From the NCBI GenBank assembly GCA_016183365.1, contig JACPES010000002.1, forward strand, positions 12,779 through 76,778: 64,000 nucleotides of DNA, in the 5' to 3' direction. The notes under the pieces were generated by a model. That model searched no databases, was not told the DNA's origin, and was given only the letters and a program-made list of their open reading frames with translations. Below are positions 633 through 56,274 of the stretch, one piece after another (the first letter of the stretch is position 1; each line of letters opens with the position of its first letter). A program made the position numbers and the translations under genes. The DNA is from Candidatus Collierbacteria bacterium (GTDB lineage: Bacteria; Patescibacteriota; Microgenomatia; UBA1400; JACPES01).

Positions 633-1355
633 TTAAGTATCTTCGTTGTCGATCGCCAGCGGCGCGGAAATTAAAGTTGTTTCTAGTTCAAAATCGTTGT
701 CTCTCAACTCGACAAAACTCTGATAAGATGAAAATCCGGATTGAGAAAAATTTGACAGGATAATTTCCGTTTTAACCCAATCCTGTTTAATCTTTCCCAA
801 ATAGACAAGGTAAGAAGATGGCTGTGAAGTTATTTGATCATATAAGGATTCTCCCTTAAGGATACTCCCTGAAACCGGGTTTAAATGAATATATCTTGAT
901 ACATGCAATAATTGGGCATCTGATTCAATTAACACCGCCTTATATGATGACTGAAACAAAGTTCCCACGCGTCCATGCCGTTTATTGAAATACATGGTGT
1001 ACCTAGTCATCAACGATCTCATCATTAATTCCATTCCTTGGATATCTTTCTGTTTAATAAGAAAATGAAAATGGTTCGACATCAGACAATAGGCGATTAG
1101 GAAAACCCGGTCAGAGAAATTATTCAGTCTCAACTTCTTTTTGGCTATTTCTTTGTCTTTAGCCGATGAGGAAATGTCAGCCACTATTTTCAAAAGTTTT
1201 TCATGATCGCAAGGCAATAAATATTCTTTAAGATAGGTCAAAAAGACAGAGTAATCCTGTTTATCTTTAAAGATTTTTCTTTTATTCACTCCACGGTTAT
1301 ACACATGATAGTAACAATCCTCGCCGTAGATCTTAAGCGAATTTTTTCCCGGCAT
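633..1355 (-). CDS. IS200-like Y1 tyrosine transposase (REP-associated, RAYT-like)
   Basis: YHVYNRGVNKRKIF ... NHFHFLI ... GTLFQSSYKAVLIESDAQLLHVSRYIHLNPV are hallmark HuH/Y1 motifs. Paralog of the ORF at 4862-5560. Confidence 0.8.
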   Translation of the reverse strand: MPGKNSLKIYGEDCYYHVYNRGVNKRKIFKDKQDYSVFLTYLKEYLLPCDHEKLLKIVADISSSAKDKEIAKKKLRLNNFSDRVFLIAYCLMSNHFHFLIKQKDIQGMELMMRSLMTRYTMYFNKRHGRVGTLFQSSYKAVLIESDAQLLHVSRYIHLNPVSGSILKGESLYDQITSQPSSYLVYLGKIKQDWVKTEIILSNFSQSGFSSYQSFVELRDNDFELETTLISAPLAIDNEDT

Positions 1356-4756: not shown

Positions 4757-4810
4757 CGAAAAGTATAGCAGAAATCTGTTTACTGTTGTTGATTATTTCT
4801 TAATTGATAT

Positions 4811-4858
4811 ATCAATCAATTGAAGGTCTGACCTTCAATGTAGCCATATATCAATCAC
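4811..4858. repeat. REP-like palindromic element (attgaaggtctgaccttcaat + gtagccatatatcaatca)
   Basis: Perfect palindrome ttgaaggtctgaccttcaa. Copies at 5633-5690, 11104-11146 and, in frame inside mrdA, at 34126-34164. Two copies flank the transposase gene at 4862-5560. Confidence 0.75.
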
Positions 4859-4861
4859 TAT

Positions 4862-5560
4862 TTATTCAAGCCGGAGTTTTTTGGTCAATAGTTCGCTTCT
4901 CGGCAGGCAGATCCCAAGCTTGGTATACTCCCAAAATTCATTTTTGTTATTCAGAAGCGACATGACTGGTTCGGTATTTATCCATGGTTCGGGATGGTTT
5001 AAATATGATGACAGGCTACTCCACTGATATTTAGGCAAGTTTTGTTCATTCCATCTAGAAAATTCGCCATTGGCGGGGTTTACGTGAACATAGCGAACGG
5101 CTTGAAGTAATTGTTCATCATGAATAATGGCAACGGATTTGTATTTAGATTCAAATAGTCGTCCTTTGCGTTTTTCGACTTTATTGAAGTACATGGTAAA
5201 GGCTGTTCCCAGTCTTTGCATAAATTTAGCTATGGCAGTTTTCTTATCTTCAGATTCTCCCAAAACTAAATGGAAATGATTATTCATCAATATTAAGGCT
5301 ACAATATCCAAAATCGGAGGCCCGAATTCTTCCTCGGCTTTGCCAATCTTTTCCGGCGTAATTTTATCTCGTTTTAGCCAATCATCAAGTACCGCGATAG
5401 AAGGGGATTTTAACAATCTGGACAGTCTCAAAGTGGTAATAAACCGCCGGCGGTGGTTATCGTTCAGGAAAATCACTCGTTTATCAACTCCGCGATTATA
5501 AACATGAGAAAAGAACCTAACCGGAGTCATCGGAGTCATAATCAATATAACAATATCCAA
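4862..5560 (-). CDS. IS200-like Y1 tyrosine transposase (RAYT-like) flanked by REP copies
   Basis: HVYNRGVDKRVIF ... NNHFHLVL ... GRLFESKYKSVAIIHDEQLLQAVRYVHVNP. Paralog of 633-1355. Confidence 0.8.
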   Translation of the reverse strand: MDIVILIMTPMTPVRFFSHVYNRGVDKRVIFLNDNHRRRFITTLRLSRLLKSPSIAVLDDWLKRDKITPEKIGKAEEEFGPPILDIVALILMNNHFHLVLGESEDKKTAIAKFMQRLGTAFTMYFNKVEKRKGRLFESKYKSVAIIHDEQLLQAVRYVHVNPANGEFSRWNEQNLPKYQWSSLSSYLNHPEPWINTEPVMSLLNNKNEFWEYTKLGICLPRSELLTKKLRLE

Positions 5561-5632
5561 AATATAAACTTTTTACAACCCCATCGAGATATCCATTGTT
5601 GCGACCGTCCCCGCTACTAAAAAGGGTCTATA

Positions 5633-5690
5633 TATCAATTAATTGAAGGTCTGACCTTCAATGTAGCCATGTATCAATGATTATTATTTA
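5633..5690. repeat. REP-like palindromic element, second copy flanking the RAYT gene
   Basis: atcaattaattgaaggtctgaccttcaatgtagccatgtatcaatga. Confidence 0.75.
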
Positions 5691-11007: not shown

Positions 11008-11103
11008 AGGTACCATACGATACCTGGTGGCGAGTGCAGAATTGTACCTGCTAAGGCACCATTCGGAGCCTGGCTTCGCCAGAAGCAAAAGCAGAATGTG
11101 CCG

Positions 11104-11146
11104 CCAATTGAAGGTCTGACCTTCAATATAGCTTCATATCAAGTAA
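11104..11146. repeat. REP-like palindromic element, copy 3
   Basis: ccaattgaaggtctgaccttcaatatagcttcatatcaagtaa. Confidence 0.7.
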
Positions 11147-11148
11147 TT

Positions 11149-11266
11149 TTATTCCAAGATAGCGAAAACCATGACCGTGAGGCCATGGATGAAGCGATAC
11201 AGATAGCCGCGGAGCGCACAGTGCGGAGCAAAAAACCATGTGAGTTGGCGCATGGTTTTTTTATAG
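11149..11266. repeat. about 118-bp direct repeat, copy 2
   Basis: See 9858-9974. Confidence 0.7.
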
Positions 11267-22539: not shown

Positions 22540-23388
22540 ATGGGAAGAGCTAAAGAAACCGCTCGGGTAATTTCTAAACTAACCGGCGAAATCGCCGTTA
22601 CAGCTCTGGATTTGGTAGTGCTTGCCGCAGCTGCCGCCGGCGGTTTCTTTTTATACGGCCCTAGTGGAAAAGATCTATATGTTGATTATAAAACCAAAAA
22701 AGCCCTGGCCGCAGCCGATCGTTTTTTTACCAAATGGAATCAATCTAATTTTCGTCGCGCGGTCGGTCGGGCAGCCGGGGAGGGGTTGATAAAACGGATT
22801 GCAGGTGGTTACGAGCTAACAGAAACCGGCCAGGAAAAATTAAGAGAATTGCTCCCGAATTACAAAAAACAGCGCCCCTGGGATGGCCGTTTATGGTTGA
22901 TAACTTATGATATTCCCGAAGATACAAAGGAGAAAAGAGAAAAATTTAGAAAATTCTTGAAAGAAATTGGTTGCCGCATGGTTCAGAAATCTGTCTGGCT
23001 GTCGCTGAAGGATCCTCATATCTGGTTAGTCGTCAGAATAAATTCTCTCCGTCTTCAGGGGAGGGTGATTATCTCCTGTTTGGGCAAAGATGGGAGTTTA
23101 GGAGATGAAGGGGTTACCAAAATGGTTTCTCGGATATTTGACCTGAAGAAAATAAATAGAGAGTATCGACGCTGGGTAAAACATGCTTTGGTAACTGATA
23201 AAGCAGGCATTTTCCATCACGGCTTGCGTTTTTTGGCGATTTTAAGAGACGACTCCGTGGTTCCCAAGGAATTGTTGCCTGTCGATTGGATGGGGGAGCA
23301 AGCTCTGAAAATATTTGAAGATAAATTCAAACCTCAAATGGGTCTGATAGGAAACTATTTGGTTAACGTCAATACTTCAAAGCGATAG
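22540..23388 (+). CDS. PaaX-family-like transcriptional regulator with an N-terminal membrane anchor
   Basis: RPWDGRLWLITYDIPEDTKEKREKFRKFLKEIGCRMVQKSVWLS matches the PaaX C-terminal signature (W.G.W....IPE...R......L...G......SVW.S). Preceded by a winged-helix-like region, with a TM helix at residues 20-42. Confidence 0.5.
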   Translation: MGRAKETARVISKLTGEIAVTALDLVVLAAAAAGGFFLYGPSGKDLYVDYKTKKALAAADRFFTKWNQSNFRRAVGRAAGEGLIKRIAGGYELTETGQEKLRELLPNYKKQRPWDGRLWLITYDIPEDTKEKREKFRKFLKEIGCRMVQKSVWLSLKDPHIWLVVRINSLRLQGRVIISCLGKDGSLGDEGVTKMVSRIFDLKKINREYRRWVKHALVTDKAGIFHHGLRFLAILRDDSVVPKELLPVDWMGEQALKIFEDKFKPQMGLIGNYLVNVNTSKR

Positions 23389-23671: not shown

Positions 23672-24961
23672 TTACTGCGGGCACTGGTAATTGGAAGGTT
23701 GACAGGTTGCGTTGCAGCATTTGCTGCTTTGGCATTGGGAGTTGGAACTACAACTTTGTCCATTGGGTTTTCTAGTTGGGGTGGGAGTGGGCGTGGGCAG
23801 CGGGTTTCCGCAACAGTAACCCCCGGAAGGGACACAAGTCCCCGAGGCGGTATATTTTCCCAACTGGTAGCAACTGACTCCGTAATAACACTGCCCTGTA
23901 CAAGTTGAAGCCGGAGTGGGAGTGGAAGTAGGTCTCGGTGTGGGAGTGGAAGTAGGACGAGGAGTAGGTGTGGGAGTAGGCTTTTTGGTCGGTGTGGGAG
24001 TAGGCTTTTTGGTGGGTGTGGGAGTGGAAGTAGGTCTCGGTGTGGGAGTAGGGGTGGGTGTGCCAATGGTAAATCTATTACTTGCTGAAACAGGGACTAA
24101 TTGACTATCTTGCGTGAAAGAATTGGAGGCATAAACACTCCAGTAATATTCGTGACCACGGATGAGATCGAACACATTACACTCGATTGCTTCTTCAGCG
24201 GGGGGGTTGGAGTAAAATCTTTGTTCGCATGTAGTTCTGGTTGTGCCGCTGGTTACGTCATACAACTGATAATAATGGCTAACAGGCCTATAACAATTGT
24301 GCCAGATAATTCGTGAATTAAGATGTACATCTTGCACGTCAGGGGGAAATTTGGTGTAGTTCGGCGGGTAATCAAGGATAATTTCCGGTTTCTGTCCTGG
24401 ACAGGCGTTAACACTGAAATTTCTGGTTTCAGAAAGTAATTCCAGGTAGGTTCTACTACTGGCTTTCACTTGCCACGAGTATTCGTTGCCCCAAGAAACC
24501 GGTACTGAACACTCAAATTCCCAAACTGATTTTCCAAACTCGTATGATTCACAGGATGGGATGGTAGTACCGGTGGTTAAGTTGGAAAAGACGATATAGT
24601 ATCTTGTCTCTTCCGAGCACTCCTTAATATCAAAAGATCCGGTAAGTTTAACCATACTTGTATCATCGGGAAAAGAGAAATTATCTGCCGGGGTAGAGAG
24701 AGTAATTTCAGGGAAGTCTCCAGTACAGAGCGGTATAGCTGGTATTGGCATAATTGATTTGGAGGCCAAGGAATAGATTCTTTGGGTATTTTGAAAAAGA
24801 AATATTCCTATTACCAGACCAATTGCCAGACCAACACCGAGTCGAAACAGGACAGTTAGATTTCGAGAATCGAGATTTTTTTTGAGTTTTTTGAGATTAT
24901 TTTGAAATTGCTTCATTAGCATCAGTATTATTAGTGTTTCACTTGGCGACATGAATGTCAA
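23672..24961 (-). CDS. cell-surface protein: signal anchor, beta-rich domains, Pro/Thr linker and a Cys-rich C-terminal module
   Basis: N-terminal TM helix ([22 protein letters not shown]), a [23 protein letters not shown]... linker, and a C-terminal cluster of about 18 Cys. Confidence 0.55.
23905..24062. repeat. tandem repeats that encode the Pro/Thr-rich linker
   Basis: Repeated ggtgtgggagtggaagtaggtctc units. Confidence 0.6.
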
Positions 24962-25860: not shown

Positions 25861-28032
25861 TCAATATTCGGAATTCAGTATTTTTATCGCTTCCGCGTAA
25901 TCCGGTTTCAATTCCAAGGCTTGGCGGTAAAGATTTTCGGCCTTGGATTTATCGTTCAATTCTCCATACATCCGGCCTAATAAATAGTATCCCCGGGGGT
26001 CGGTGGGGGATAAATCAACGGCTTTTTGAGCCAGTTTCAAGGCTTCATCAGTCAGATTTGGATCAATCTCCTTCATCAAAAATTCCATCTGGGTTTGAGT
26101 CCTGATAAAAGTCAAATTATATTTTGATTGGGCGGAAACGACTTTAAAATTTTTTACGGCTTCATTTTTTATCTCAACGGCGCGGGTTTCATTGTTGTTG
26201 GCCCAAGCCGAAATTGCGGCTACAGCCAATGATTCTGCCAGTTCGTTACGGAAAACCGGTTCATTGGGGGCTAAATTAACCGCTTGAGAGAGTGGTTCTA
26301 AGGCTTCCGGAATATATCCGGCTGAATAATATTGTCGGCCGAGATTGTATTTAAGATCAGCCTGAAACCGATTAAATATTCCGGAAATTACCCCAAAAGT
26401 AATAATGGCTATGATTGTTAGTAAAAAATACTTCCACCATAGCAATTTTATAAAGGAGTCTCCTTTAAGGATCTTCCCTTCTGTCGTGAAGACAACTGTC
26501 AAGCTCATAAATAAATATCTATAAGTCTCGGTGGTAACTGTGGAGAAACCGAAAAAGTTGACGGTTTCAACCCCGAGCAGGGCCGCCAGAATTGCGACAA
26601 GAACGTCATTGCGAGGAGTCCCGCCTTTGGCGGGACGACGTGGCAATCCCGATGGGATCGCCACGCTTCGCCCGTCAGACTGGCTTGCTCGCGATGACCT
26701 AACTATCCAAACTCCAAACCATCCCAACAACAGTAAATGTGTCCCTAATCCAAACAATCCCGTATTCGCCGCCAAATTCAGCCATTCATTATGAGCCTTG
26801 TTATATAAAAAATTCCATTCCGAGGTTTGGTTTGCTTCTTTGTGCCGGACTTGCCAGTAGGTCAGGCCGAAAGTCTCCGGTCCGGTTCCAAAAATTGGAT
26901 TCCTCTTGGCAATTTCCCAAGCTCCGTTCCAAACTATGCGGCGGATATCTCCGGATTCGGTGCCGCCTAGCTCCGACTTGCGGAGATTAATTGCTAATTG
27001 TTGATTGCTAATTACTGATTGTTCAGATTGATTTTTTACCAGCTGAATTGTTTTGAAAAACCAATCTCTGGCGGGATTATTAGTGATGAAAACCAAAATC
27101 AAGATGATTGAATGAATAAAAACAAAGGATTTGAGATTTTTGCTTTTTGCTTTTTGTTTATTGTTTATTGCGAACACGGTGAGCCAAAACACAACATCCA
27201 TTACTGCAAAACCAAGAAGTCCCGAGCGGGATTTTGTGAAGAGGAGGGCAGTAAAAAAAACAAAAAACAAAAAACAAAAAACAATCATATTTTTATTACC
27301 GTTCTTTGCTTTTTGCTCTTTGCTTTTTGTCATGAGCATCCATGTAAGCGGGATGATCATGACGAGGAACCCCGCTAGCCAGTTCGGCTGTCCCTGGGTA
27401 GAAAAAACTCGGGTTGCGACGTCCTGAATCCAGAAATCGCGGTCAATCCCGAAATGTTGAAAGATGGCGTAAAGGCTGACGATAGTGGCGGAAGAGAGAA
27501 TAGCAAATATCGGAACACTCGGAATACTCCGAAAACCAGAAAAATCAGAGAATCGGAGATTCAGAGAGCCCGAAGCTCCGGTCTTCTGATTATCAGATTT
27601 TCTGACCTTTCGGCTCTCCGAGTTTTCCGAGTTTTCCGAAATATTCGCCACAAATGCGTAATACAGCACCGTATAGCTAATCGTGCTCACAAGCCCTCCG
27701 TTAAATCTTCCGTACCAGCCAAACCACGAAATATGATGATCTATACTATATATAGTACTGACAACCTGTGACAGTAAAAATAGCAGAATGGGAATATCCA
27801 GCGGGGTCCAGCGCAAAATAATCCGGCCCGCCAAAATCATTCTTATTGTCCAGACGGCTATTATCAGTGTAGTCATTAAATACACAAACAGCATTTTGGG
27901 AAATTCAAACACTTCGCTGCTTGGAATCCAAAAGATTAAGGGCAAAAAGAAAAATAAAGTTATAAACAGGGCGCGAATGGTTAGTTGCAGGGTTCTATCA
28001 AGCCGGATAAACATTAAGTTTGATTTTAGCAA
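25861..28032 (-). CDS. O-antigen ligase/Wzy-like polytopic membrane protein with C-terminal TPR repeats
   Basis: Many TM helices, a Wzy_C-like region (NGAWEIAKRNPIFGTGPETFG) and C-terminal TPR repeats (GYYLLGRMYGELNDKSKAENLYRQALELKP). It carries several inserted repeat elements. Confidence 0.55.
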   Translation of the reverse strand: MLKSNLMFIRLDRTLQLTIRALFITLFFFLPLIFWIPSSEVFEFPKMLFVYLMTTLIIAVWTIRMILAGRIILRWTPLDIPILLFLLSQVVSTIYSIDHHISWFGWYGRFNGGLVSTISYTVLYYAFVANISENSENSESRKVRKSDNQKTGASGSLNLRFSDFSGFRSIPSVPIFAILSSATIVSLYAIFQHFGIDRDFWIQDVATRVFSTQGQPNWLAGFLVMIIPLTWMLMTKSKEQKAKNGNKNMIVFCFLFFVFFTALLFTKSRSGLLGFAVMDVVFWLTVFAINNKQKAKSKNLKSFVFIHSIILILVFITNNPARDWFFKTIQLVKNQSEQSVISNQQLAINLRKSELGGTESGDIRRIVWNGAWEIAKRNPIFGTGPETFGLTYWQVRHKEANQTSEWNFLYNKAHNEWLNLAANTGLFGLGTHLLLLGWFGVWIVRSSRASQSDGRSVAIPSGLPRRPAKGGTPRNDVLVAILAALLGVETVNFFGFSTVTTETYRYLFMSLTVVFTTEGKILKGDSFIKLLWWKYFLLTIIAIITFGVISGIFNRFQADLKYNLGRQYYSAGYIPEALEPLSQAVNLAPNEPVFRNELAESLAVAAISAWANNNETRAVEIKNEAVKNFKVVSAQSKYNLTFIRTQTQMEFLMKEIDPNLTDEALKLAQKAVDLSPTDPRGYYLLGRMYGELNDKSKAENLYRQALELKPDYAEAIKILNSEY

Positions 28033-32262: not shown

Positions 32263-32686
32263 TATTTTTTTGTTGGCGCTGACTTTTATAATCTCCGGGG
32301 CAGAACCATTTTTGGGATCATTTAGTCTGGCTGCCATTTGGGCGGCGGCGCTGGGAGTAAAAAAACAGGATATTCTCGGGGCATTGTTGACATTTATATT
32401 AGGTTTGGTTCGGGATATACTATTGATTAATAGATTGGGACAATCGTCAATTATTTTATTGGCAGTTTGGACTTTAGCCGGAATAATATCTTCCAAATTG
32501 TCAAAAAATTTATTTTCAGTTGCAGTCTCGGCCTTTGGTGGATATTTAATCTTAAGTTTAGTAGAAATAGGGACGATCAATATTTGGGGGACGTTAATTA
32601 CGGTTATAATATCAATATTAATTGTTGAAATTTGGACGCTGAAAGATTCCCGCGAATCGGGAATTAAAGTCAGATTGTCTTCATGA
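32222..32686 (+). CDS. mreD: rod-shape-determining protein MreD (putative)
   Basis: Small polytopic membrane protein between mreC and mrdA. Confidence 0.5.
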   Translation: MPALTLFFSYQMNNIFLLALTFIISGAEPFLGSFSLAAIWAAALGVKKQDILGALLTFILGLVRDILLINRLGQSSIILLAVWTLAGIISSKLSKNLFSVAVSAFGGYLILSLVEIGTINIWGTLITVIISILIVEIWTLKDSRESGIKVRLSS

Positions 32687-34446
32687 AGTTTGGACCGTTG
32701 GAATTATCAATCGCTGATAGAAAACAAAATTTTTTGCCGCTGGGAATAATGGTCGTAATTATGATGTCCGCAGTGGGTATAATTTTGGCCAGACTGACGG
32801 AATTGACGGTTTTTCGCGGAGGAGAATTAAGGCGCCGGGCGGACGAAAACAGGATTTTGGTTAGGGTGGTCCCGGCTCCCCGGGGAATAATTTTTGATAA
32901 AAATGGAAAGGCATTGACTCGGAATACTCCGGATGGCAGAGCCTATCCATTTGACCGGAATTTTTCTCACTTGACCGGATATATCGGCGAAGCTTCAGAG
33001 GAAGAAATTAAAAGCGATTCATCTCTAAACCCTGGTAATATTTTAGGAAAAACCGGATTGGAAAAGCAATACGATAAGGAGTTGCGCGGAATCGATGGAG
33101 CTGAATTGATTGAAGTGGATGCAAATGGCAATTTACTTGAGGTTTTAGAGGATCAATTACCACAGGCGGGAAAAGATATTTATACTTATTTAGATGTGGA
33201 TTTACAAGTTGCCATGACTGAAAATTTAGGGGGAAGAAAAGGGGCGGCTGTGGCAATTGATCCGGTGGATGGCTCAGTTTTGGGATTGGTTTCCAGTCCG
33301 TCGTATGACCCGAATATATTTCAGAAAACTCTGAATACAATCATTCCGGAAAACTCAGAAAACTCGGATGGCCGGAAAGTCGGAATGTCAGAAAATCAGA
33401 AAGTCGGACCCTCTGGTTCTCCGAGTTCTCCGAGTGTTCTGGACTTATTGAATGACACCGTCAATATGCCATTATTTAACCGCGCCATTTCCGGCGAATA
33501 TCCGCCGGGATCTATTTTTAAATTGGTGACGGCGGCAGCGGGATTGTCAGAAAATAAAATTAACCGCCAAACTTTAGTTAGGGATACCGGTGAGATCAGA
33601 GTCGGAGACTTTAGATTCGGCAATTGGTATTTTGATCAGTATGGAAAAACCGAAGGCGAAATCGGAGTGGTCAGGGCTTTAACCAGAAGCAACGATATTT
33701 TTTTCTATAAAGTCGGGGAATGGTTGGGGCCGGATCTATTAGCAGGATGGGCTAAAAAAATGAAACTGGGTAAAAAAACAGGTATTGATTTATCCGGAGA
33801 AGCCGATGGTTTGGTTCCTGACCCTAAATGGAGGGAAAAGGCTACAGGTGAAAGATGGTTCTTGGGAAATACTTATCATATGGCCATCGGTCAGGGTGAT
33901 GTTCAATTGACTCCATTGCAGGCGGCGGTGATGACCAGTACGGTGATTACCGGCAAACGCTGTACGCCGCGGATTAAACAATTAACAATCAGCAATCAGC
34001 AATCAGCAATTTCTTGTGAAGATACAGGAGTTTCTAAAAGTAACCGCAATTTAATTCTTGAAGGAATGGTGGGATCCTGCAGTCCGGGCGGGGTGACCTT
34101 TCCGTTTTTCCCTTGGAATCAATCCATTGAAGGTCAGACCTTCAATGAAGCCATACATCAATCAAACGGTATGAGCGGTTATCCGGCTGTGGCGTGTAAA
34201 ACTGGCACGGCCCAGCATGGTGGAAAACAGACTAAACCGCACGCGTGGATTGTAGTCGCTGCCCCAATTATTGAAAGCCAACCATCAGTAAAATCAGCAA
34301 TTAGCAATTCTTCTTATCAACTCGATTTAGACTCTCCCAAACGAATAATTTTAGTCGTTCTTGTCGAAGATGCCGGCGAGGGCTCCTACGAAGCCGCTCC
34401 TGTGGCCAAAAAGATTTTGGAAAAATGGTTTGAAACCAATAAATAA
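32683..34446 (+). CDS. mrdA: penicillin-binding protein 2 (peptidoglycan transpeptidase) with three in-frame repeat insertions
   Basis: AAVAIDPVDGSVLGLVSSPSYDPN ... SIFKLVTAAAGL (SxxK) ... KTGTAQ. Insertions at 33347-33440, 33978-34012 and 34126-34164. Confidence 0.85.
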   Translation: MKFGPLELSIADRKQNFLPLGIMVVIMMSAVGIILARLTELTVFRGGELRRRADENRILVRVVPAPRGIIFDKNGKALTRNTPDGRAYPFDRNFSHLTGYIGEASEEEIKSDSSLNPGNILGKTGLEKQYDKELRGIDGAELIEVDANGNLLEVLEDQLPQAGKDIYTYLDVDLQVAMTENLGGRKGAAVAIDPVDGSVLGLVSSPSYDPNIFQKTLNTIIPENSENSDGRKVGMSENQKVGPSGSPSSPSVLDLLNDTVNMPLFNRAISGEYPPGSIFKLVTAAAGLSENKINRQTLVRDTGEIRVGDFRFGNWYFDQYGKTEGEIGVVRALTRSNDIFFYKVGEWLGPDLLAGWAKKMKLGKKTGIDLSGEADGLVPDPKWREKATGERWFLGNTYHMAIGQGDVQLTPLQAAVMTSTVITGKRCTPRIKQLTISNQQSAISCEDTGVSKSNRNLILEGMVGSCSPGGVTFPFFPWNQSIEGQTFNEAIHQSNGMSGYPAVACKTGTAQHGGKQTKPHAWIVVAAPIIESQPSVKSAISNSSYQLDLDSPKRIILVVLVEDAGEGSYEAAPVAKKILEKWFETNK

Positions 34447-39235: not shown

Positions 39236-39961
39236 ATGTTTAAGCGTTTATTTGGAGGACACCGGAACAAAGTTTACAAAACTAACGGATTTGTGAAGGT
39301 CATATGGAAAGATGGTTTTAGAAGACAAAACCAAATCCGCGAGGGGGTTAGCTTAGAAAATTTTGTGGCGACTCATATAGATATTAAAGCCCGGATGTTA
39401 GTTGACAAGTCTAAGCCGGTTGAAGAAGAAGACGGGGGATTGGTAACCTATTTTCATTACGCCGAAGGCGAGATCCGCTATCCATGGAATTTGGATGAAA
39501 TTGCTTCGGCGGCGAAATTGCTTACTAGGTTTCATCAGCATTTAAAGGCCTGGCCTTCGCCGCGGGGGCCAGGCCTTATCAGACAACTCCATCTGGATTT
39601 TGCCCGCGGCAACGTACTATTTCAGCCCGGATCCTCGAACGCTATCGGCGTCATCGACTTCGAAACCACAGCCATTGGTCCGGTTGAACAAGATCTCGGC
39701 CGCACCCTAAGCTTTATTTTAGTTGATTCGCCCATTAATTTAAATAGGGAAGATCCTTTAAGGAGTATCCTTCAAGGATCTTCCTTTTTTGAGAGATGGA
39801 ACACCTTATTGACAAATTACTCTCTGACATTTAGAAAAGACAAGGTGATAAACTGGACCTTGCGGTACTTGACCGACGAAGACTACGGGAGTTTAAACTA
39901 CATAAGAGATAAAGCAATTTCATGGCTGCATGACAGTGTTGTTAACAATTTAACAATTTAG
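39236..39961 (+). CDS. phosphotransferase (APH/choline-kinase-like) family protein
   Basis: HLDFARGNVLF ... GVIDFETTAIGPVEQDL is the Brenner kinase motif. Contains the ggagtatccttcaaggatc repeat in frame. Confidence 0.45.
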   Translation: MFKRLFGGHRNKVYKTNGFVKVIWKDGFRRQNQIREGVSLENFVATHIDIKARMLVDKSKPVEEEDGGLVTYFHYAEGEIRYPWNLDEIASAAKLLTRFHQHLKAWPSPRGPGLIRQLHLDFARGNVLFQPGSSNAIGVIDFETTAIGPVEQDLGRTLSFILVDSPINLNREDPLRSILQGSSFFERWNTLLTNYSLTFRKDKVINWTLRYLTDEDYGSLNYIRDKAISWLHDSVVNNLTI

Positions 39962-47599: not shown

Positions 47600-48496
47600 A
47601 TGATTATCGATGGGAAAAAATTAGCGGCCGAAAGAGAAAAGAAACTAGCGGGAGAAGTTAGCTTGCTTACGAAAAAAATCGGCCGTCGGCCAAAACTTCT
47701 GGCGGTGGAATTAGCCGATGATGAGGGGAGCAGGTTGTATCTTAAATTAAAGCGAAAAGCGGCAGAAAGGTTGGGAATAGAATTTGAAGTTATAAAAAGG
47801 CCAGGCCTTTCCGGGAAAGGCCTGGCCTTTTTGACTGGTTTTGATATAGATGGGGTGTTTGTTCAGCATCCCAGGGGTTATGACAAACAAAAATGGCAGG
47901 AATTGGTCGATCAAATCCCGCCGGAAAAAGATGTTGATTGTTTGACCAGTGAAAATCTTCAATTGATTAAAGACGGCAAGCCAAGATTTTTGCCGGCTAC
48001 CGTTAAGGCTGTTGGCTACGTCATTCTGAGCGTAGTGAAGGATCCCGTCGGGCCTAATCCTAAATGGGATTCTTCAGTCGTTTCACTCCTTCAGAATGAC
48101 GGGTTATTAAGGCATTTCCTTCTCAACAAGCACGTCGTCATTCTCGGTCGCAGTCCGATTCTTGGTTTACCCCTCTTCTGGTGGTTCAATAGTTTTGGCG
48201 GGAAAGTGACTCTGTTGCATTCGCAAACAAAAAACAAAAAACAAAAAACAAAAAACTCCGATATTCTTATTTCTTCCGTCGGCAAACCCGGAATTATCAT
48301 CGGCAAAATGGTGAAAGAGGGAGCGATTGTCGTTGATTGCGGTTCGCCTTCGGGCGACGTAGCCTTCGGCGAAGTCGCCCCCAAAGCTTCTGCCATCACC
48401 CCGGTCCCCGGCGGCGTCGGCCCCTTAACCGTGGTAAGTTTGATGGAAAATGTGGTAAAATCGGCAAAAGACACATATGCCAAAAAAAGACGATAA
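47600..48496 (+). CDS. folD: bifunctional methylene-THF dehydrogenase/cyclohydrolase FolD with three in-frame repeat insertions
   Basis: MIIDGKKLAAEREKKLAGEV ... LLAVELADDEGSRLYLKLKRKAAERLGIEFEV ... C-terminal GGVGPLTVVSLMENV. Confidence 0.8.
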   Translation: MIIDGKKLAAEREKKLAGEVSLLTKKIGRRPKLLAVELADDEGSRLYLKLKRKAAERLGIEFEVIKRPGLSGKGLAFLTGFDIDGVFVQHPRGYDKQKWQELVDQIPPEKDVDCLTSENLQLIKDGKPRFLPATVKAVGYVILSVVKDPVGPNPKWDSSVVSLLQNDGLLRHFLLNKHVVILGRSPILGLPLFWWFNSFGGKVTLLHSQTKNKKQKTKNSDILISSVGKPGIIIGKMVKEGAIVVDCGSPSGDVAFGEVAPKASAITPVPGGVGPLTVVSLMENVVKSAKDTYAKKRR

Positions 48497-49235
48497 ACCC
48501 TTGATTGGTGTTTCTTTAGAAGAATTGCTGGAAGCCGGATGCCATTTTGGCCATCAGGCTCGCCGCTGGCATCCTAAAATGGCTCCGTATATTTGGGGCA
48601 AAAAAGACGGAATCCATATTTTCGATCTGGATAAAACCAGACAAGCCATATTCGAAGCAATAGATATGGTCAAAAAAATAGCCGCGGAAGGGAAATTAAT
48701 TATTTTTGTCGGAACTAAAAAACAAGCCTCGCAGATTATTACAGAAGAAGCAATTAGAGCCGGAATGCCGTTTGTGGCCAAACGTTGGTTGGGCGGAACT
48801 TTAACCAACTGGAAGCAGCTTAAATTGAGCGTTAATAAATTAATAGATCTTAAGATAAAACGCGAAGCGAAAGAATTGGATAAATACACCAAGAAGGAAA
48901 GAGTTTTAATCGACAAACAGATTGAAAGGCTGGAAAAATTTGTCGGCGGTCTGCAGCAATTGACAATTTTGCCGGCTGCCATATTTGTAGTTGATATCAG
49001 AAGAGAAGACGCGGCGGTTAGAGAAGCCCATATATTGAAAATTCCGGTGATAGCTATTGTCGACTCCAATTGCGACCCGGAAATGATAACTAAAGTAATT
49101 CCCGGAAATGATGATGCCATTGGGACGATTAGATTAATCACTTCCAAAATTACCGATGCGGTGTTGGAGGGGAAAAAACAAAGAGCAAAAAACAATGAAC
49201 AAGAAACAAGAAACAATGAACATAAAACAAATTAA
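48477..49235 (+). CDS. rpsB: 30S ribosomal protein S2
   Basis: LEAGCHFGHQARRWHPKMAPYIWGKKDGIHIFDLDKT. Confidence 0.9.
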   Translation: MPKKDDKPLIGVSLEELLEAGCHFGHQARRWHPKMAPYIWGKKDGIHIFDLDKTRQAIFEAIDMVKKIAAEGKLIIFVGTKKQASQIITEEAIRAGMPFVAKRWLGGTLTNWKQLKLSVNKLIDLKIKREAKELDKYTKKERVLIDKQIERLEKFVGGLQQLTILPAAIFVVDIRREDAAVREAHILKIPVIAIVDSNCDPEMITKVIPGNDDAIGTIRLITSKITDAVLEGKKQRAKNNEQETRNNEHKTN

Positions 49236-49662
49236 AACTCTTCGTGAGCAAACCGGTGTAGGCGTGATGGACGCCAGAAAAGCTTTGGAGGAAAGTCATG
49301 GGGATATAAAAAGAGCCGGAGAGTGGCTTAAAAAAAATGCCGTCGCCAAAGCGCTTAAAAAAGCAGATAGGGTTACCGGCGACGGAGCGATTTTTTCCTA
49401 TATCCACCAAACCGGGAAAATTGCCTCATTGATAAAGTTGGCCTGCGAAACTGATTTTGTGGCCAAAACAGACGATTTTCAGAAGTTAGGCAAAGAACTG
49501 GCGATGCAGGTAGCCTCGATGAATCCGAAAGATATTGCTGGTCTTTATTGTCAAGATTGGATCAGGGATAATAAAAAAAATATTAAGCAATTAATTGATG
49601 AAGTGATTACTAGGTTGGGAGAGAATATTAAAATACTAGAGATTGCGAGAATGAAAATTTAA
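49216..49662 (+). CDS. tsf: elongation factor Ts (short form)
   Basis: MNIKQIKTLREQTGVGVMDARKALEESHGDIKRAGEWL. The start is ambiguous, lying at 49156, 49195 or 49216, within an A5C-type repeat shared with the rpsB 3' end. Confidence 0.75.
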   Translation: MNIKQIKTLREQTGVGVMDARKALEESHGDIKRAGEWLKKNAVAKALKKADRVTGDGAIFSYIHQTGKIASLIKLACETDFVAKTDDFQKLGKELAMQVASMNPKDIAGLYCQDWIRDNKKNIKQLIDEVITRLGENIKILEIARMKI

Positions 49663-53622: not shown

Positions 53623-55062
53623 TTATTTAAATAATTGAAGTTTTTGAAATGCTAGGCGTTTTTTATCCCAGAATTTTCCGCGGCGGCAGAGATTAGAGAT
53701 ATCCGATTTGTTTTCTAGCAGCGTCTCGACCACGATCTCTAAAAAAATCGTGTTTTGAGATCCCTTGACTAAGATTATTTCTCCGCCGGAGATAAATTCG
53801 TGCTTCTCAATTATGGAGATTTGTCTGGCAGAGCCGGATCTCGCTCCGCGAGACGATCCTGCCAATAAAAACTTGGCCGCTTCTCCGGCAGTCAAAAACC
53901 ATTCGACCGGCAGTTTCGACTGTTTGATTATCGGTAGAGCGTATTGTTTCATCAATGGTCCGACGAGGACTATTTTATCCGCGGTTTTCACCGCTACCTC
54001 AGCTATTTTTTCGTGTTCTATTTTAGCCTGCGAACCCAGTTCGCGCATGTCCCCCAAAACCGCGATTTTGGTTTTATTTCCTCCAATATTTTGAAGCATT
54101 TTCAGACTGCCGATTACCGTTTCCCGCGAGGCGTTATAAGAAGAATCAATGATGGCGGTATTTTTAATTCCCGGAAAAATCCAACCGCGCCCCGATGGTA
54201 GTTTGAATCCTGCCGAGATTTTTTCGGCTATGGCTTGAGGATCTTGACCCAAACAAATTCCGGTGGCGAAAGCCGCCGATAAAGTGAATCCGTAAAATTC
54301 CGGCAAAATCATATTTTTTAATGAAATTTGATATTCCCGTTGTTTAAATGAAAGTAATACCTCTGTTTGAGAAAGCGAAGGAATAACGTTTAAAATTTTA
54401 ACATCGGCTGCCGGCGATTTTCCAAAGGTTAAAGTTCTTGCTCCAGCTGATTTCGGTTTCAGTGAATTTATTTCCGGTTGATCGGCGTTTAAAATAGCCC
54501 ATTGCAAATTTTGATTTTCGGTTATAAGTTTTCCCTTCTCTGCGGCGATGGACTCTATTAAGGTCAGACATTTCCGTACGACCAGGTCTGACCTTTCAAA
54601 CTGTTCTGTATGTACCGGCAAAACGTTTAAAATTACAGCTATATCCGGTTTTAAGATTGTCAGCAAATAGCCCATGTTTTTGGGCGAAGTCGGTTCGTCG
54701 ATGCCCATTTCGACGAGATAACAATCGAAAGAATTGCTAATTGCTGATTGCTGATTGTTAATTGTTTTAATAGCTTGAATTGGCGCCAATGCGAGGATGC
54801 GTAGCCAGTCAAAAATAGGATGAACCGACTCGCCGAAATGAAGGCCGAGAATGTCGGCCGGAATGCCGGATTCGGAATTGGCTTTTTCGGCAACTTTAAG
54901 ATTTTTAAATTTTAGTTTTAATACCGGCGCGATTGCGTCTATGGCGCTGGATTTTCCGGCCGAACCGGTGATTCCGACAATAAAAGGATTGCTTTTCTTA
55001 AGCGCAAACAAGGCCCAAAATCTAAGCCACCATAAAATCGGCCAACGAAAAATGCGTTTCAT
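53623..55062 (-). CDS. murF: Mur ligase family protein (MurF-like UDP-MurNAc-peptide D-Ala-D-Ala ligase)
   Basis: IVGITGSAGKSS P-loop ... NSESGIPADILGL. Carries an in-frame NQQSAIS repeat insertion. Confidence 0.65.
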   Translation of the reverse strand: MKRIFRWPILWWLRFWALFALKKSNPFIVGITGSAGKSSAIDAIAPVLKLKFKNLKVAEKANSESGIPADILGLHFGESVHPIFDWLRILALAPIQAIKTINNQQSAISNSFDCYLVEMGIDEPTSPKNMGYLLTILKPDIAVILNVLPVHTEQFERSDLVVRKCLTLIESIAAEKGKLITENQNLQWAILNADQPEINSLKPKSAGARTLTFGKSPAADVKILNVIPSLSQTEVLLSFKQREYQISLKNMILPEFYGFTLSAAFATGICLGQDPQAIAEKISAGFKLPSGRGWIFPGIKNTAIIDSSYNASRETVIGSLKMLQNIGGNKTKIAVLGDMRELGSQAKIEHEKIAEVAVKTADKIVLVGPLMKQYALPIIKQSKLPVEWFLTAGEAAKFLLAGSSRGARSGSARQISIIEKHEFISGGEIILVKGSQNTIFLEIVVETLLENKSDISNLCRRGKFWDKKRLAFQKLQLFK

Positions 55063-55152: not shown

Positions 55153-56274
55153 GTGTTGACTGTTTTGTTTTTTTTAATTCTGCTTTCGGTTCTGGTTTTA
55201 GTCCATGAACTGGGGCATTTTATCGCCGCCAAGAAATTGGGAGTAGTGGCGGAAGAGTTTGGTTTGGGTTTGCCGCCCAAAGTCAGGCGGCTTTTTGTCT
55301 GGCAGGGGACGGAATTTACCCTCAACTGGCTGCCGCTGGGTGGGTTTGTGAAGATGAGAGGGGAAGATCGGGAAATAAAAGACAATGAGCAAAAAACAAT
55401 GAGCAAAGAACAAAAAGCAAAAAACAAAGAGCAAGGATTTTTCTTTGCGCAACCGCCATGGAAGCGGGCGGTGATTTTGGTGGCCGGGGTATTTATGAAC
55501 TTGGTTTTGGGAGTGGCGGCATTTACCTCGGTTTATACCGTCTTGGGAATTCCGGAAGAAAGAGACGTGGTGGTTATCGACGGAGTGGCGCCAAATAGCC
55601 CGGCGGAGCGGGCACAACTAAATCAAAACGATGTTGTGAACGAGTTCAAAGTTCAAAGTTCAAAGTTCAAAGTTAACGACACCAAGCAATTCATAGAATT
55701 AATTAATCAGCATCGAGGGGAGGAAGTCACGCTCATTATTAAGCGTGGACAAGAGGAAAAAGAAATTGTTGTTACTCCGCGACTTGAATCCGAAACTCCA
55801 GAAGGCGAGGGAGCGCTGGGGGTGGCGATTTCCAATATCCAGTTTATCCACTATCCCCGGTGGCAGATGCCGTTTAGGGCGTCCGTGACTGGGTTTAAGG
55901 AAGCTTTGGCATGGGGACGGAATATTATCGGGGGTTTGGGGAAAATGGTTTTCGATCTGGCGACTCACGGCAAAGTCCCGAATGATTTGGCCGGGCCGGT
56001 GGGAATCGCCAAAATTACCGGCGAAGTGGCCAAGAGAGGTTGGATTCCGCTTTTCCAATTGGCCGGAATTTTATCAATCAATTTAGCGGTGGTTAATATC
56101 CTGCCGATTCCGGCTCTGGACGGCGGCAGGTTGCTGTTTTTAGGGATCGAAAAACTGAGAGGAAAGCCGATGGATCCGAAGAAAGAACGTTTGGCCCATC
56201 TGATCGGCTATACATTGCTAATCTCTCTTTTAATTTTGATTACCATCAAAGATTTAATCGGCGGAGTCGGATAA
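55153..56274 (+). CDS. rseP: RIP metalloprotease RseP (site-2 protease with PDZ domain)
   Basis: HELGHFIAAKKLGV ... PDZ region ... NLAVVNILPIPALDGGRLLF. Confidence 0.8.
   Translation: MLTVLFFLILLSVLVLVHELGHFIAAKKLGVVAEEFGLGLPPKVRRLFVWQGTEFTLNWLPLGGFVKMRGEDREIKDNEQKTMSKEQKAKNKEQGFFFAQPPWKRAVILVAGVFMNLVLGVAAFTSVYTVLGIPEERDVVVIDGVAPNSPAERAQLNQNDVVNEFKVQSSKFKVNDTKQFIELINQHRGEEVTLIIKRGQEEKEIVVTPRLESETPEGEGALGVAISNIQFIHYPRWQMPFRASVTGFKEALAWGRNIIGGLGKMVFDLATHGKVPNDLAGPVGIAKITGEVAKRGWIPLFQLAGILSINLAVVNILPIPALDGGRLLFLGIEKLRGKPMDPKKERLAHLIGYTLLISLLILITIKDLIGGVG

Follow-up and report, generated by a model that had tools for sequence, protein, structure and literature searches.

A dispersed palindromic element read in frame within PBP2 and other proteins of Patescibacteria: a probable counterpart of the Rickettsia palindromic elements

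In a 64,000-nucleotide stretch of contig JACPES010000002.1 from a Candidatus Collierbacteria bacterium (hereafter the window), the gene encoding the class B penicillin-binding protein PBP2/MrdA contains a segment that is palindromic as DNA and is read through in frame as protein, and a similar segment lies within a gene for an O-antigen-ligase-like (Wzy_C) membrane protein. This raises the question whether both segments are copies of one element and, if so, how a palindrome comes to be dispersed over coding sequences and to persist there. A preliminary description, made from the DNA letters alone, had proposed that one mobile element with inverted arms had landed in these two envelope genes while preserving the reading frame. 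Both segments are copies of one palindromic element, which we named the ENSENS element. With a probability of roughly 0.8, it belongs to a dispersed palindromic family, non-coding by origin, of Microgenomates-type Patescibacteria (the candidate phyla radiation, CPR), which would behave as selfish DNA expanding protein loops in a manner analogous to the Rickettsia palindromic elements (RPEs).

Copy 1 occupies positions 33342..33447 on the plus strand (nhmmer E = 2e-22 to 4e-25), in frame in PBP2; its core at 33349-33441 corresponds to residues 223-253 and encodes the peptide ENSENSDGRKVGMSENQKVGPSGSPSSPSVL. Copy 2 occupies 27506..27643 on the minus strand (nhmmer E = 1e-25), where the open reading frame (ORF) of the Wzy_C protein with tetratricopeptide (TPR) repeats encodes SENSENSESRKVRKSDNQKTGASGSLNLRFSDFSGFRSIPSVP in 43 codons, from 27639 down to 27511. 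These positions agree to within a few bases with those proposed at first. At the DNA level, the copies are 77% identical over 82 nt without gaps (pair I3), with a local alignment score of 81, compared to a mean of 17.3 and a maximum of 36 in 2000 dinucleotide shuffles (z = 21.8) and to a top score of 30 for a copy against every other 105-nt stretch of the window. A profile built by nhmmer from 102 external copies, with the window excluded, matched both sites on both strands (E = 1e-25 to 2e-22) and found no further ENSENS site in the window at E < 0.2. Given these scores and profile matches, the objection that the similarity might not extend beyond low-complexity composition fails. When as many as 3 mismatches are tolerated, the arm motif GGAAAACTCGGAAAACTCGGA has four matches in the window compared to 0.00 expected from shuffles, and these four are the two arms of each of the two copies. 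Both copies fold as long imperfect palindromes or hairpins, with single-stranded DNA folding energies of -35.5 kcal/mol (z = -6.1) for the Wzy copy and -18.9 kcal/mol (z = -2.8) for the PBP2 copy. Rfam contained no family at either element site; its sole hits, below the gathering threshold, fell on another palindrome at 27117-27295.

The first host gene (32683..34446, plus strand) lies downstream of mreC and mreD and encodes a protein identical to HYU89_00425 of Candidatus Collierbacteria (Patescibacteria/CPR, metagenome-assembled genome). It possesses what defines a class B PBP2/MrdA, namely a PBP_dimer (PF03717) and a Transpeptidase (PF00905) domain, an SxxK motif and an mreBCD context with MreC upstream. 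In the catalytic S277-x-x-K280, both S277 and K280 are invariant in our alignment of orthologues (A2), and the protein matches solved MrdA structures with E = 3e-67. The MrdA structure 7KIS aligns to residues 86-214 and 256-422 of the query, leaving 41 query residues opposite about 10 residues of the solved chain. In an AlphaFold2 model with a mean predicted local distance difference test (pLDDT) of 76.8, residues 218-247 score below 50, and the insert loop sits between predicted helices 212-218 and 250-256, about 25 residues ahead of S277-x-x-K280. The insert is thereby predicted to occupy a disordered loop. Reading the segment as an insert gives the predicted junction peptides IIPENSENSDGR and VGMSENQK.

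Orthologue alignments confirmed that both insertions are in frame and that the element is patchily distributed among relatives. For PBP2, orthologues P0006, P0009, P0010 and P0011 lack the element, and their loop is short (FQKI-MSNEQKVES-NDKEIENLL); in P0016 and P0019 there is hardly any loop at this position, and the nearest orthologue, P0002, lacks the element and has a short loop of a different sequence; the loop DNA of P0002 and P0010 is likewise free of it. An unrelated repeat occupies the same position in P0004, P0005, P0007 and P0008, and ENSENS-like peptides occur elsewhere in PBP2 of P0015 and P0019. Just 5' of copy 1, at 33320..33338 on the plus strand and overlapping the conserved FQKT codons, lies a mini-palindrome, TTCAGAAAACTCTGAAT, with weak profile matches (E = 0.5-1.6) and an extra arm-like match at 33324-33334. 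The native loop of P0010 begins with TTCAGAAAA, which equals the terminal bases of the element. The mini-palindrome could possibly be a relic of element termini, reflect a target preference or be a coincidence.

Apart from the element, PBP2 contains an (AATCAGC)3 array at 33973-34015, whose translation is ISNQQSAIS; residues 438-441 have pLDDT < 50. Within a Mur ligase ORF (53623-55062), at 54732-54767, lies a partner of this array that is 97% complementary to it over 36 nt, so that the array looks like another repeat family common to two coding genes.

The second host gene (25861..28032, minus strand), annotated in the source as O-antigen ligase family protein, combines PF04932 with C-terminal TPR families and, from its sequence, is taken to encode a polytopic membrane protein with a Wzy_C domain. 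Here the insert is located between two hydrophobic helices. According to the orthologue alignment (A3) and the genome scan described below, the element at this site is common only to P0128, P0130 and the distant orthologue L003, while P0122-P0127, P0129 and P0131-P0133 have other inserts or none. At the shared site, nucleotide identity is 84% in the element and 72-75% in the flanks. In a small sample, substitutions at the first, second and third codon position numbered 5/6/10 in the element compared to 17/4/30 and 13/7/25 in the flanks. As the element substitutions are spread over the codon positions, they indicate conservation at the DNA level, or copies younger than the genes, and not conservation of the peptide.

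By inspection, a different repeat family seems to be present in the PBP2 loop of P0004, P0005, P0007 and P0008, in the Wzy loop of P0123-P0126 and in the leucyl-tRNA synthetase (LeuRS) of locus L017, with peptides such as SVVGSQSQVNQSSVSRSETD..KTDKLITENREPKTDN or SVIGFPFSVF..KPINHEPITDNR. Several repeat families thus seem to have landed in these loops repeatedly. The Wzy-like ORF of the window itself contains two more repeats. A second long palindrome at 27137-27330 (z = -3.0) consists of T-rich (TTGCTTTT) and A-rich (AAAAAAC) heptamer arrays and draws spurious sub-threshold Rfam matches (Phe leader, plant miRNAs); A-rich arrays akin to these occur at 48229, 49159-49244 and 55363-55448. A GC-rich multi-stem repeat at about 26575-26665 (z = -3.1), with an outer stem GTCATCGCGAG...CTCGCAATGAC and two inner hairpins, encodes GRSVAIPSGLPRRPAKGGTPRND and is absent from every aligned orthologue.

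Beyond the window, a genome scan with a one-arm DNA pattern, run on species-representative genomes, gave 47 matches, mostly by chance and in unrelated phyla. Judged by eye, three of them were full copies, whereas L010 and L011 were not. Of the three, the first is in frame in another Patescibacteria genome, where it occupies the same loop of the Wzy protein (L003), the second is in frame in a Levyibacteriota LeuRS (L017), and the third is an intergenic copy of 116 nt that overlaps a stop codon (L021). The profile later added a full member, L039 (E~5e-23), and weak partial ones, L033 and L041 (E~1e-7). The L039 copy (2446-2571) is in frame in a 1151-aa protein with other repeat-looking stretches, on a contig labelled uncultured Gammaproteobacteria; this contig is probably mis-binned, or else the range of the family extends beyond Patescibacteria. 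Viral contigs gave one chance match only, in a GC-rich phage gene. Searching for in-frame copies by peptide produced no candidate with a word index and 0 hits with an exhaustive phmmer run on the 43-aa segment, the latter probably owing to low-complexity or bias filtering.

A two-arm scan of metagenomes revealed 118 loci, which clustering at 93% reduced to 104 distinct copies. Of these, 40 lie well within ORFs of 200 codons or more, flanked by no fewer than 25 codons on either side, 48 are in non-coding DNA and 16, counted as ambiguous, are located where genes or contigs end. On the same loci, the family profile located 147 sites, and 21 loci carry at least two. In all, 38-54% of copies are genic and in frame, and the 40 in-ORF copies are distributed over more than 20 different Pfam architectures. 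DNA repair and replication proteins are represented by RadA (5), UvrA, UvrC, an HhH-GPD glycosylase, a RecF/SMC-like protein, an RNase_T exonuclease (2) and ribonucleotide reductase; translation and RNA proteins by LeuRS (2 genes, one with two copies), ArgRS, LepA and RsmB/F; cell wall and shape proteins by Wzy_C proteins, PBP1A, MreB, a Mur ligase and GT1 glycosyltransferases; and other hosts are CarB, a DUF2298 protein and an amine-oxidase-like protein. Since the hosts span so many processes, from DNA repair, translation and nucleotide metabolism to cell shape, the envelope theme that had seemed to link the two window genes is coincidental.

The elements measure 90-135 bp, form an imperfect hairpin along their full length with an arm complementarity of 70-88%, and end in TTCRGAA...TTCYGAA. 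Each arm is a tandem array of 9-nt units, numbering from two up to eight (eight in L155), with the sequence GAAAACTCG in one arm and CGAGTTTTC in the opposite one; a unit corresponds to three codons. Between the arms, the left part of the interior is built of xCAGAxxx units and the right part of xxxTCTGx units, each 7-9 nt long. From anchor to anchor, the first three in-frame copies measure 129, 111 and 96 nt, each a multiple of 3; since the true junctions differ from copy to copy, lengths that are not divisible by 3 also occur in the family.

How the coding copies persist can be read to some extent from what they encode. Their leading arm is read in three frames, as ENS in 21, QKT in 16 and KLG in 3 copies, and the resulting peptides are hydrophilic, with a mean Kyte-Doolittle hydropathy of -1.32 and 22% Ser. 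Out of six frames, 1.04 are open on average in non-coding copies, compared to 0.70 in shuffles and 2.08 in coding copies. In non-coding copies TAA and TAG are depleted and TGA is enriched 2.1-fold, the latter because of the TCTGA motif. Four RadA genes have the element in one common loop, which follows the Walker-A helix; its junctions differ slightly among them, and no fewer than two frames are used. In the fifth RadA, it lies elsewhere in the gene. Insertion at a place compatible with the fold is thus seen for two hosts, PBP2 (low-pLDDT loop) and RadA (loop after the Walker-A helix). Together, the three frames, the hydrophilic peptides, the stop codon counts and the RadA pattern point to insertion followed by a selection filter and not to a design for translation. 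We also considered an element pre-adapted to translation, to which 1.04 against 0.70 open frames lends slight support, and set it aside because a selection filter is the better account.

Hairpin potential is nearly equal in coding and non-coding copies (-0.179 vs -0.175 kcal/mol per nt). Compensatory evolution between the halves of individual copies found no support, with -11.45 kcal/mol for own halves and -12.64 kcal/mol for swapped ones; because own halves pair no better than swapped halves, palindromy is a property of the family as a whole. A plausible course of events is that the element multiplies non-autonomously and lands both between and within genes, that genic copies would survive only in permissive surface or inter-helix loops, with the frame kept and no in-frame TGA, and that the surviving copies would be translated as disordered loops rich in Ser, Glu, Asn, Gln, Lys and Arg while the host protein stays functional. 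We infer from the sequences that the inserts are translated and tolerated.

The closest known parallel is formed by the RPEs. These are elements of about 150 bp, nearly half of whose copies lie in frame in unrelated genes, with inserts compatible with the fold of the host protein (Ogata et al. 2000, 2002, summarised in PMC10969869 and PMC6649704), and protein-coding palindromic repeats are presented as essentially unique to Rickettsia (PMC10969869, PMC6649704). ENSENS shares with them a full-length palindrome of roughly 100-150 bp, many dispersed copies of which near half are in frame inside unrelated and often essential genes, apparently functional host proteins, decay of copies and the lack of a known transposase. 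CPR bacteria have small genomes and depend on a host, and in this respect too they resemble the bacteria that carry RPEs, being small-genome organisms dependent on other cells. Unlike the RPEs of Alphaproteobacteria, the ENSENS element occurs in Patescibacteria/CPR, is somewhat shorter (90-135 bp), has arms made of a variable number of 9-nt, three-codon tandem units, and is read in three frames, whereas each RPE family encodes one conserved peptide; the single preferred frame typical of RPEs is thus missing, and the likeness is one of behaviour and not of compared sequences. ENSENS quite likely constitutes a new family of RPE-like coding palindromes in CPR bacteria. In our literature search, whose coverage was incomplete, no publication connected elements of this kind with CPR, Patescibacteria or Microgenomates.

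Other known repeats resemble the element less. Repetitive extragenic palindromic sequences (REPs) are, by definition, extragenic; they measure 20-40 nt and bear a tag, GTAG or CGTC (PMC3733652). ENSENS resembles REPs and bacterial interspersed mosaic elements (BIMEs) in being a hairpin repeat with a BIME-like design, in which arrays of units are matched by inverted ones on the opposite side, but its length is 90-135 nt, its termini (TTCRGAAAAC), by inspection, lack GTAG/CGTC and at least 38% of its copies are intragenic. [quoted passage not shown] It differs from MITEs in that its palindromy extends over the full length and not the ends only, and in an in-frame genic frequency far above the MITE norm; no target-site duplication or parent insertion sequence was identified for it. 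The coding palindromes of Nematomorpha mitochondria (PMC6649704) are likewise long inverted repeats within coding sequence with both arms translated; those are perfect, with arms in concerted evolution and no dispersed family, whereas the ENSENS arms are imperfect.

Instead of selfish DNA, the element might be a domesticated functional module that benefits the cell, either through the hydrophilic loop it encodes or through an mRNA or DNA hairpin acting in translational pausing, mRNA stability or protein binding. Its presence in the same Wzy loop of orthologues that are 54% identical (P0130/L061) and more distant (L003) would fit such a role, as would the excess of its nucleotide identity over that of the flanking coding DNA and the hairpin potential retained by coding copies. 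Yet the element is patchy among close orthologues, unrelated repeats fill the same loops in other lineages, the three frames give different peptides and substitutions are not concentrated at third codon positions. With, in addition, a predicted disordered insert and about half of the copies intergenic, we regard domestication as unlikely.

Still less probable are two explanations that deny a shared insertion. Similar low-complexity sequence could have arisen independently in each loop by replication slippage or template switching, as might be suggested by arms made of 9-nt tandem units in variable number (eight in L155), by the native PBP2 loop starting with TTCAGAAAA, and by the likeness of the P0010-type loop MSNEQKVES to MSENQKVGP of the insert. 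However, the copies align through their non-tandem interiors, the external-copy profile matches 100-135 nt with E~1e-25, over 100 contexts that are unrelated to one another show this same architecture, and the score of 81 between the window copies compares to 30 against the rest of the window, which makes independent origin very improbable and largely refutes it. Chimeric joins at repeats could also mimic in-frame insertions, given that the source is a metagenome-assembled genome and that the Gammaproteobacteria label of the L039 contig suggests that binning errors do occur. An assembly or binning artefact is nevertheless scarcely credible, as one and the same conserved gene runs on in frame to either side of each copy, the identical 587-aa PBP2 was assembled independently on contigs from four samples, where the element profile matches as well, and element-bearing orthologues originate from several unrelated projects.

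Several observations do count against a selfish palindromic family that entered genes by insertion. The tally of coding and non-coding copies uses stop-to-stop ORFs as a proxy for genes, and the scan pattern, with fixed arm parts, admits only well-preserved copies with 79-109 nt between anchors. Sharing of the same Wzy loop by 54%-identical and more distant orthologues could mean functional retention. The window copies are only 77% alike, so that their insertions are not recent and the copies in this genome may be old and inactive. Among the PBP2 and Wzy orthologues there was no clean empty site, the loops being hypervariable in all relatives, and no target-site duplication was readable from the flanks of the 104 copies, because the termini are palindromic (TTCRGAA) and lie in A/T runs. 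The 0.78 Mb of element-bearing loci contained no autonomous parent or composite; no arm pair there brackets a transposase, and the candidate pairs were adjacent independent copies, for example around RadA in L157. No homologue of a REP-associated tyrosine transposase (RAYT) was present in the other loci examined (~1 Mb), and no RAYT with ENSENS arms was found. Mobility of the element is supported indirectly, by some 104 distinct copies in unrelated genes and intergenic DNA of many contigs; neither a target-site duplication nor a mobilising enzyme was identified.

Two RAYT-like transposases are, however, encoded in the window itself. The Pfam scan, which covered window ORFs up to 29 kb, revealed a RAYT-like Y1 (HUH) transposase gene at 633..1355 on the minus strand (gene 1; PF01797, E = 8e-10), flanked by AAGGAG(A/T)CTCCTT palindromes (the AAGGAGWCTCCTT family) at 601-613, 1375-1387 and 1397-1409. 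A second RAYT-like Y1 transposase gene (gene 2; 4862..5560, minus strand) is bracketed by units of the D6 family at 4807-4862 and 5630-5685, with the hairpin TTGAAGGTCTGACCTTCAA. The two genes are paralogous (35% identical), both match NF047646 REP_Tyr_transpos (REP-associated tyrosine transposase) with E~4e-11, under the curated cut-off, and both proteins contain the motifs HVYNRG, NHFH (HUH) and RY(I/V)H(L/V)NP. Each gene thus has its own hairpin family, as in REP/BIME-RAYT systems, and displays a REPtron-like layout, a RAYT gene flanked by the same repeats. AAGGAG(A/T)CTCCTT is present in 5 copies in the window, compared to 0.06 by chance, and the exact 19-nt D6 hairpin in 4 copies, compared to 0.01 expected.

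Members of both families also lie within the two ENSENS host genes. A AAGGAGTCTCCTT hairpin unit at 26444..26480 on the minus strand (families D10/D13, which flank RAYT-like gene 1) lies within the Wzy-like ORF, where it encodes EGKILKGDSFIK and includes an exact AAGGAG(A/T)CTCCTT copy at 26453-26465. In PBP2, a D6-family unit unrelated to ENSENS is found at 34114..34169 on the plus strand, in frame as IEGQTFNEAIHQSNG (fold z = -3.6), with an exact copy of the D6 hairpin at 34127-34145 read as IEGQTFNEA; it is absent in orthologues P0007-P0010, and pLDDT is below 50 at residues 484-497. These exact copies in host genes therefore indicate that hairpin families associated with Y1 transposases enter genes here. 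Our best guess for the mobilisation of ENSENS itself, a tentative one with the odds against it, is that it is moved by a RAYT-like Y1 transposase acting on single-stranded hairpins. By extension, it is conceivable, though doubtful, that in Microgenomates-type CPR, RAYT-like Y1 transposases mobilise several hairpin families, ENSENS among them, into coding and intergenic DNA.

A second, independent and apparently widespread case of coding palindromes, besides that of Rickettsia, would show that such palindromes reappear under weak selection against insertions. Such inserts inflate and fragment protein alignments of CPR bacteria and leave structure models with loops of low confidence. They can lead both gene calling and homology searches astray, and may explain many CPR "lineage-specific insertions". 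RAYT-like genes accompanied by their own hairpin families with exact intragenic copies offer a handle for testing how hairpin repeats enter genes. If RAYT-like transposases did mobilise ENSENS, "extragenic" palindromes would be a main source of lineage-specific loop expansions in essential proteins such as PBP2, RadA, LeuRS and MreB, and protein evolution in this radiation would have a general mechanism that is still at work and not confined to Rickettsia.

A few smaller features of the window complete the picture of its repeats. RAYT-like gene 1 has flank regions at 592-619 and 1366-1424 and holds an in-frame repeat-like stretch at 844-871, read SGSILKGESLY. Another D6 unit (11095-11150) lies in or beside a 107-aa ORF, and another AAGGAGTCTCCTT-type unit (D10/D13; 39737-39787) lies inside the span of ORF 39236-39961. 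Positions 22540-23388 on the plus strand encode a protein of 282 aa whose PaaX_M/Cas2-like domain is matched with E = 1e-11 and 6e-7; among the repeats listed for the window, no CRISPR array was noticed. Finally, a tandem 12/24-nt array, GTGGGAGTGGAAGTAGG..., extends over 23892-24082 in a 429-aa ORF (23672-24961, minus strand) without a Pfam match.

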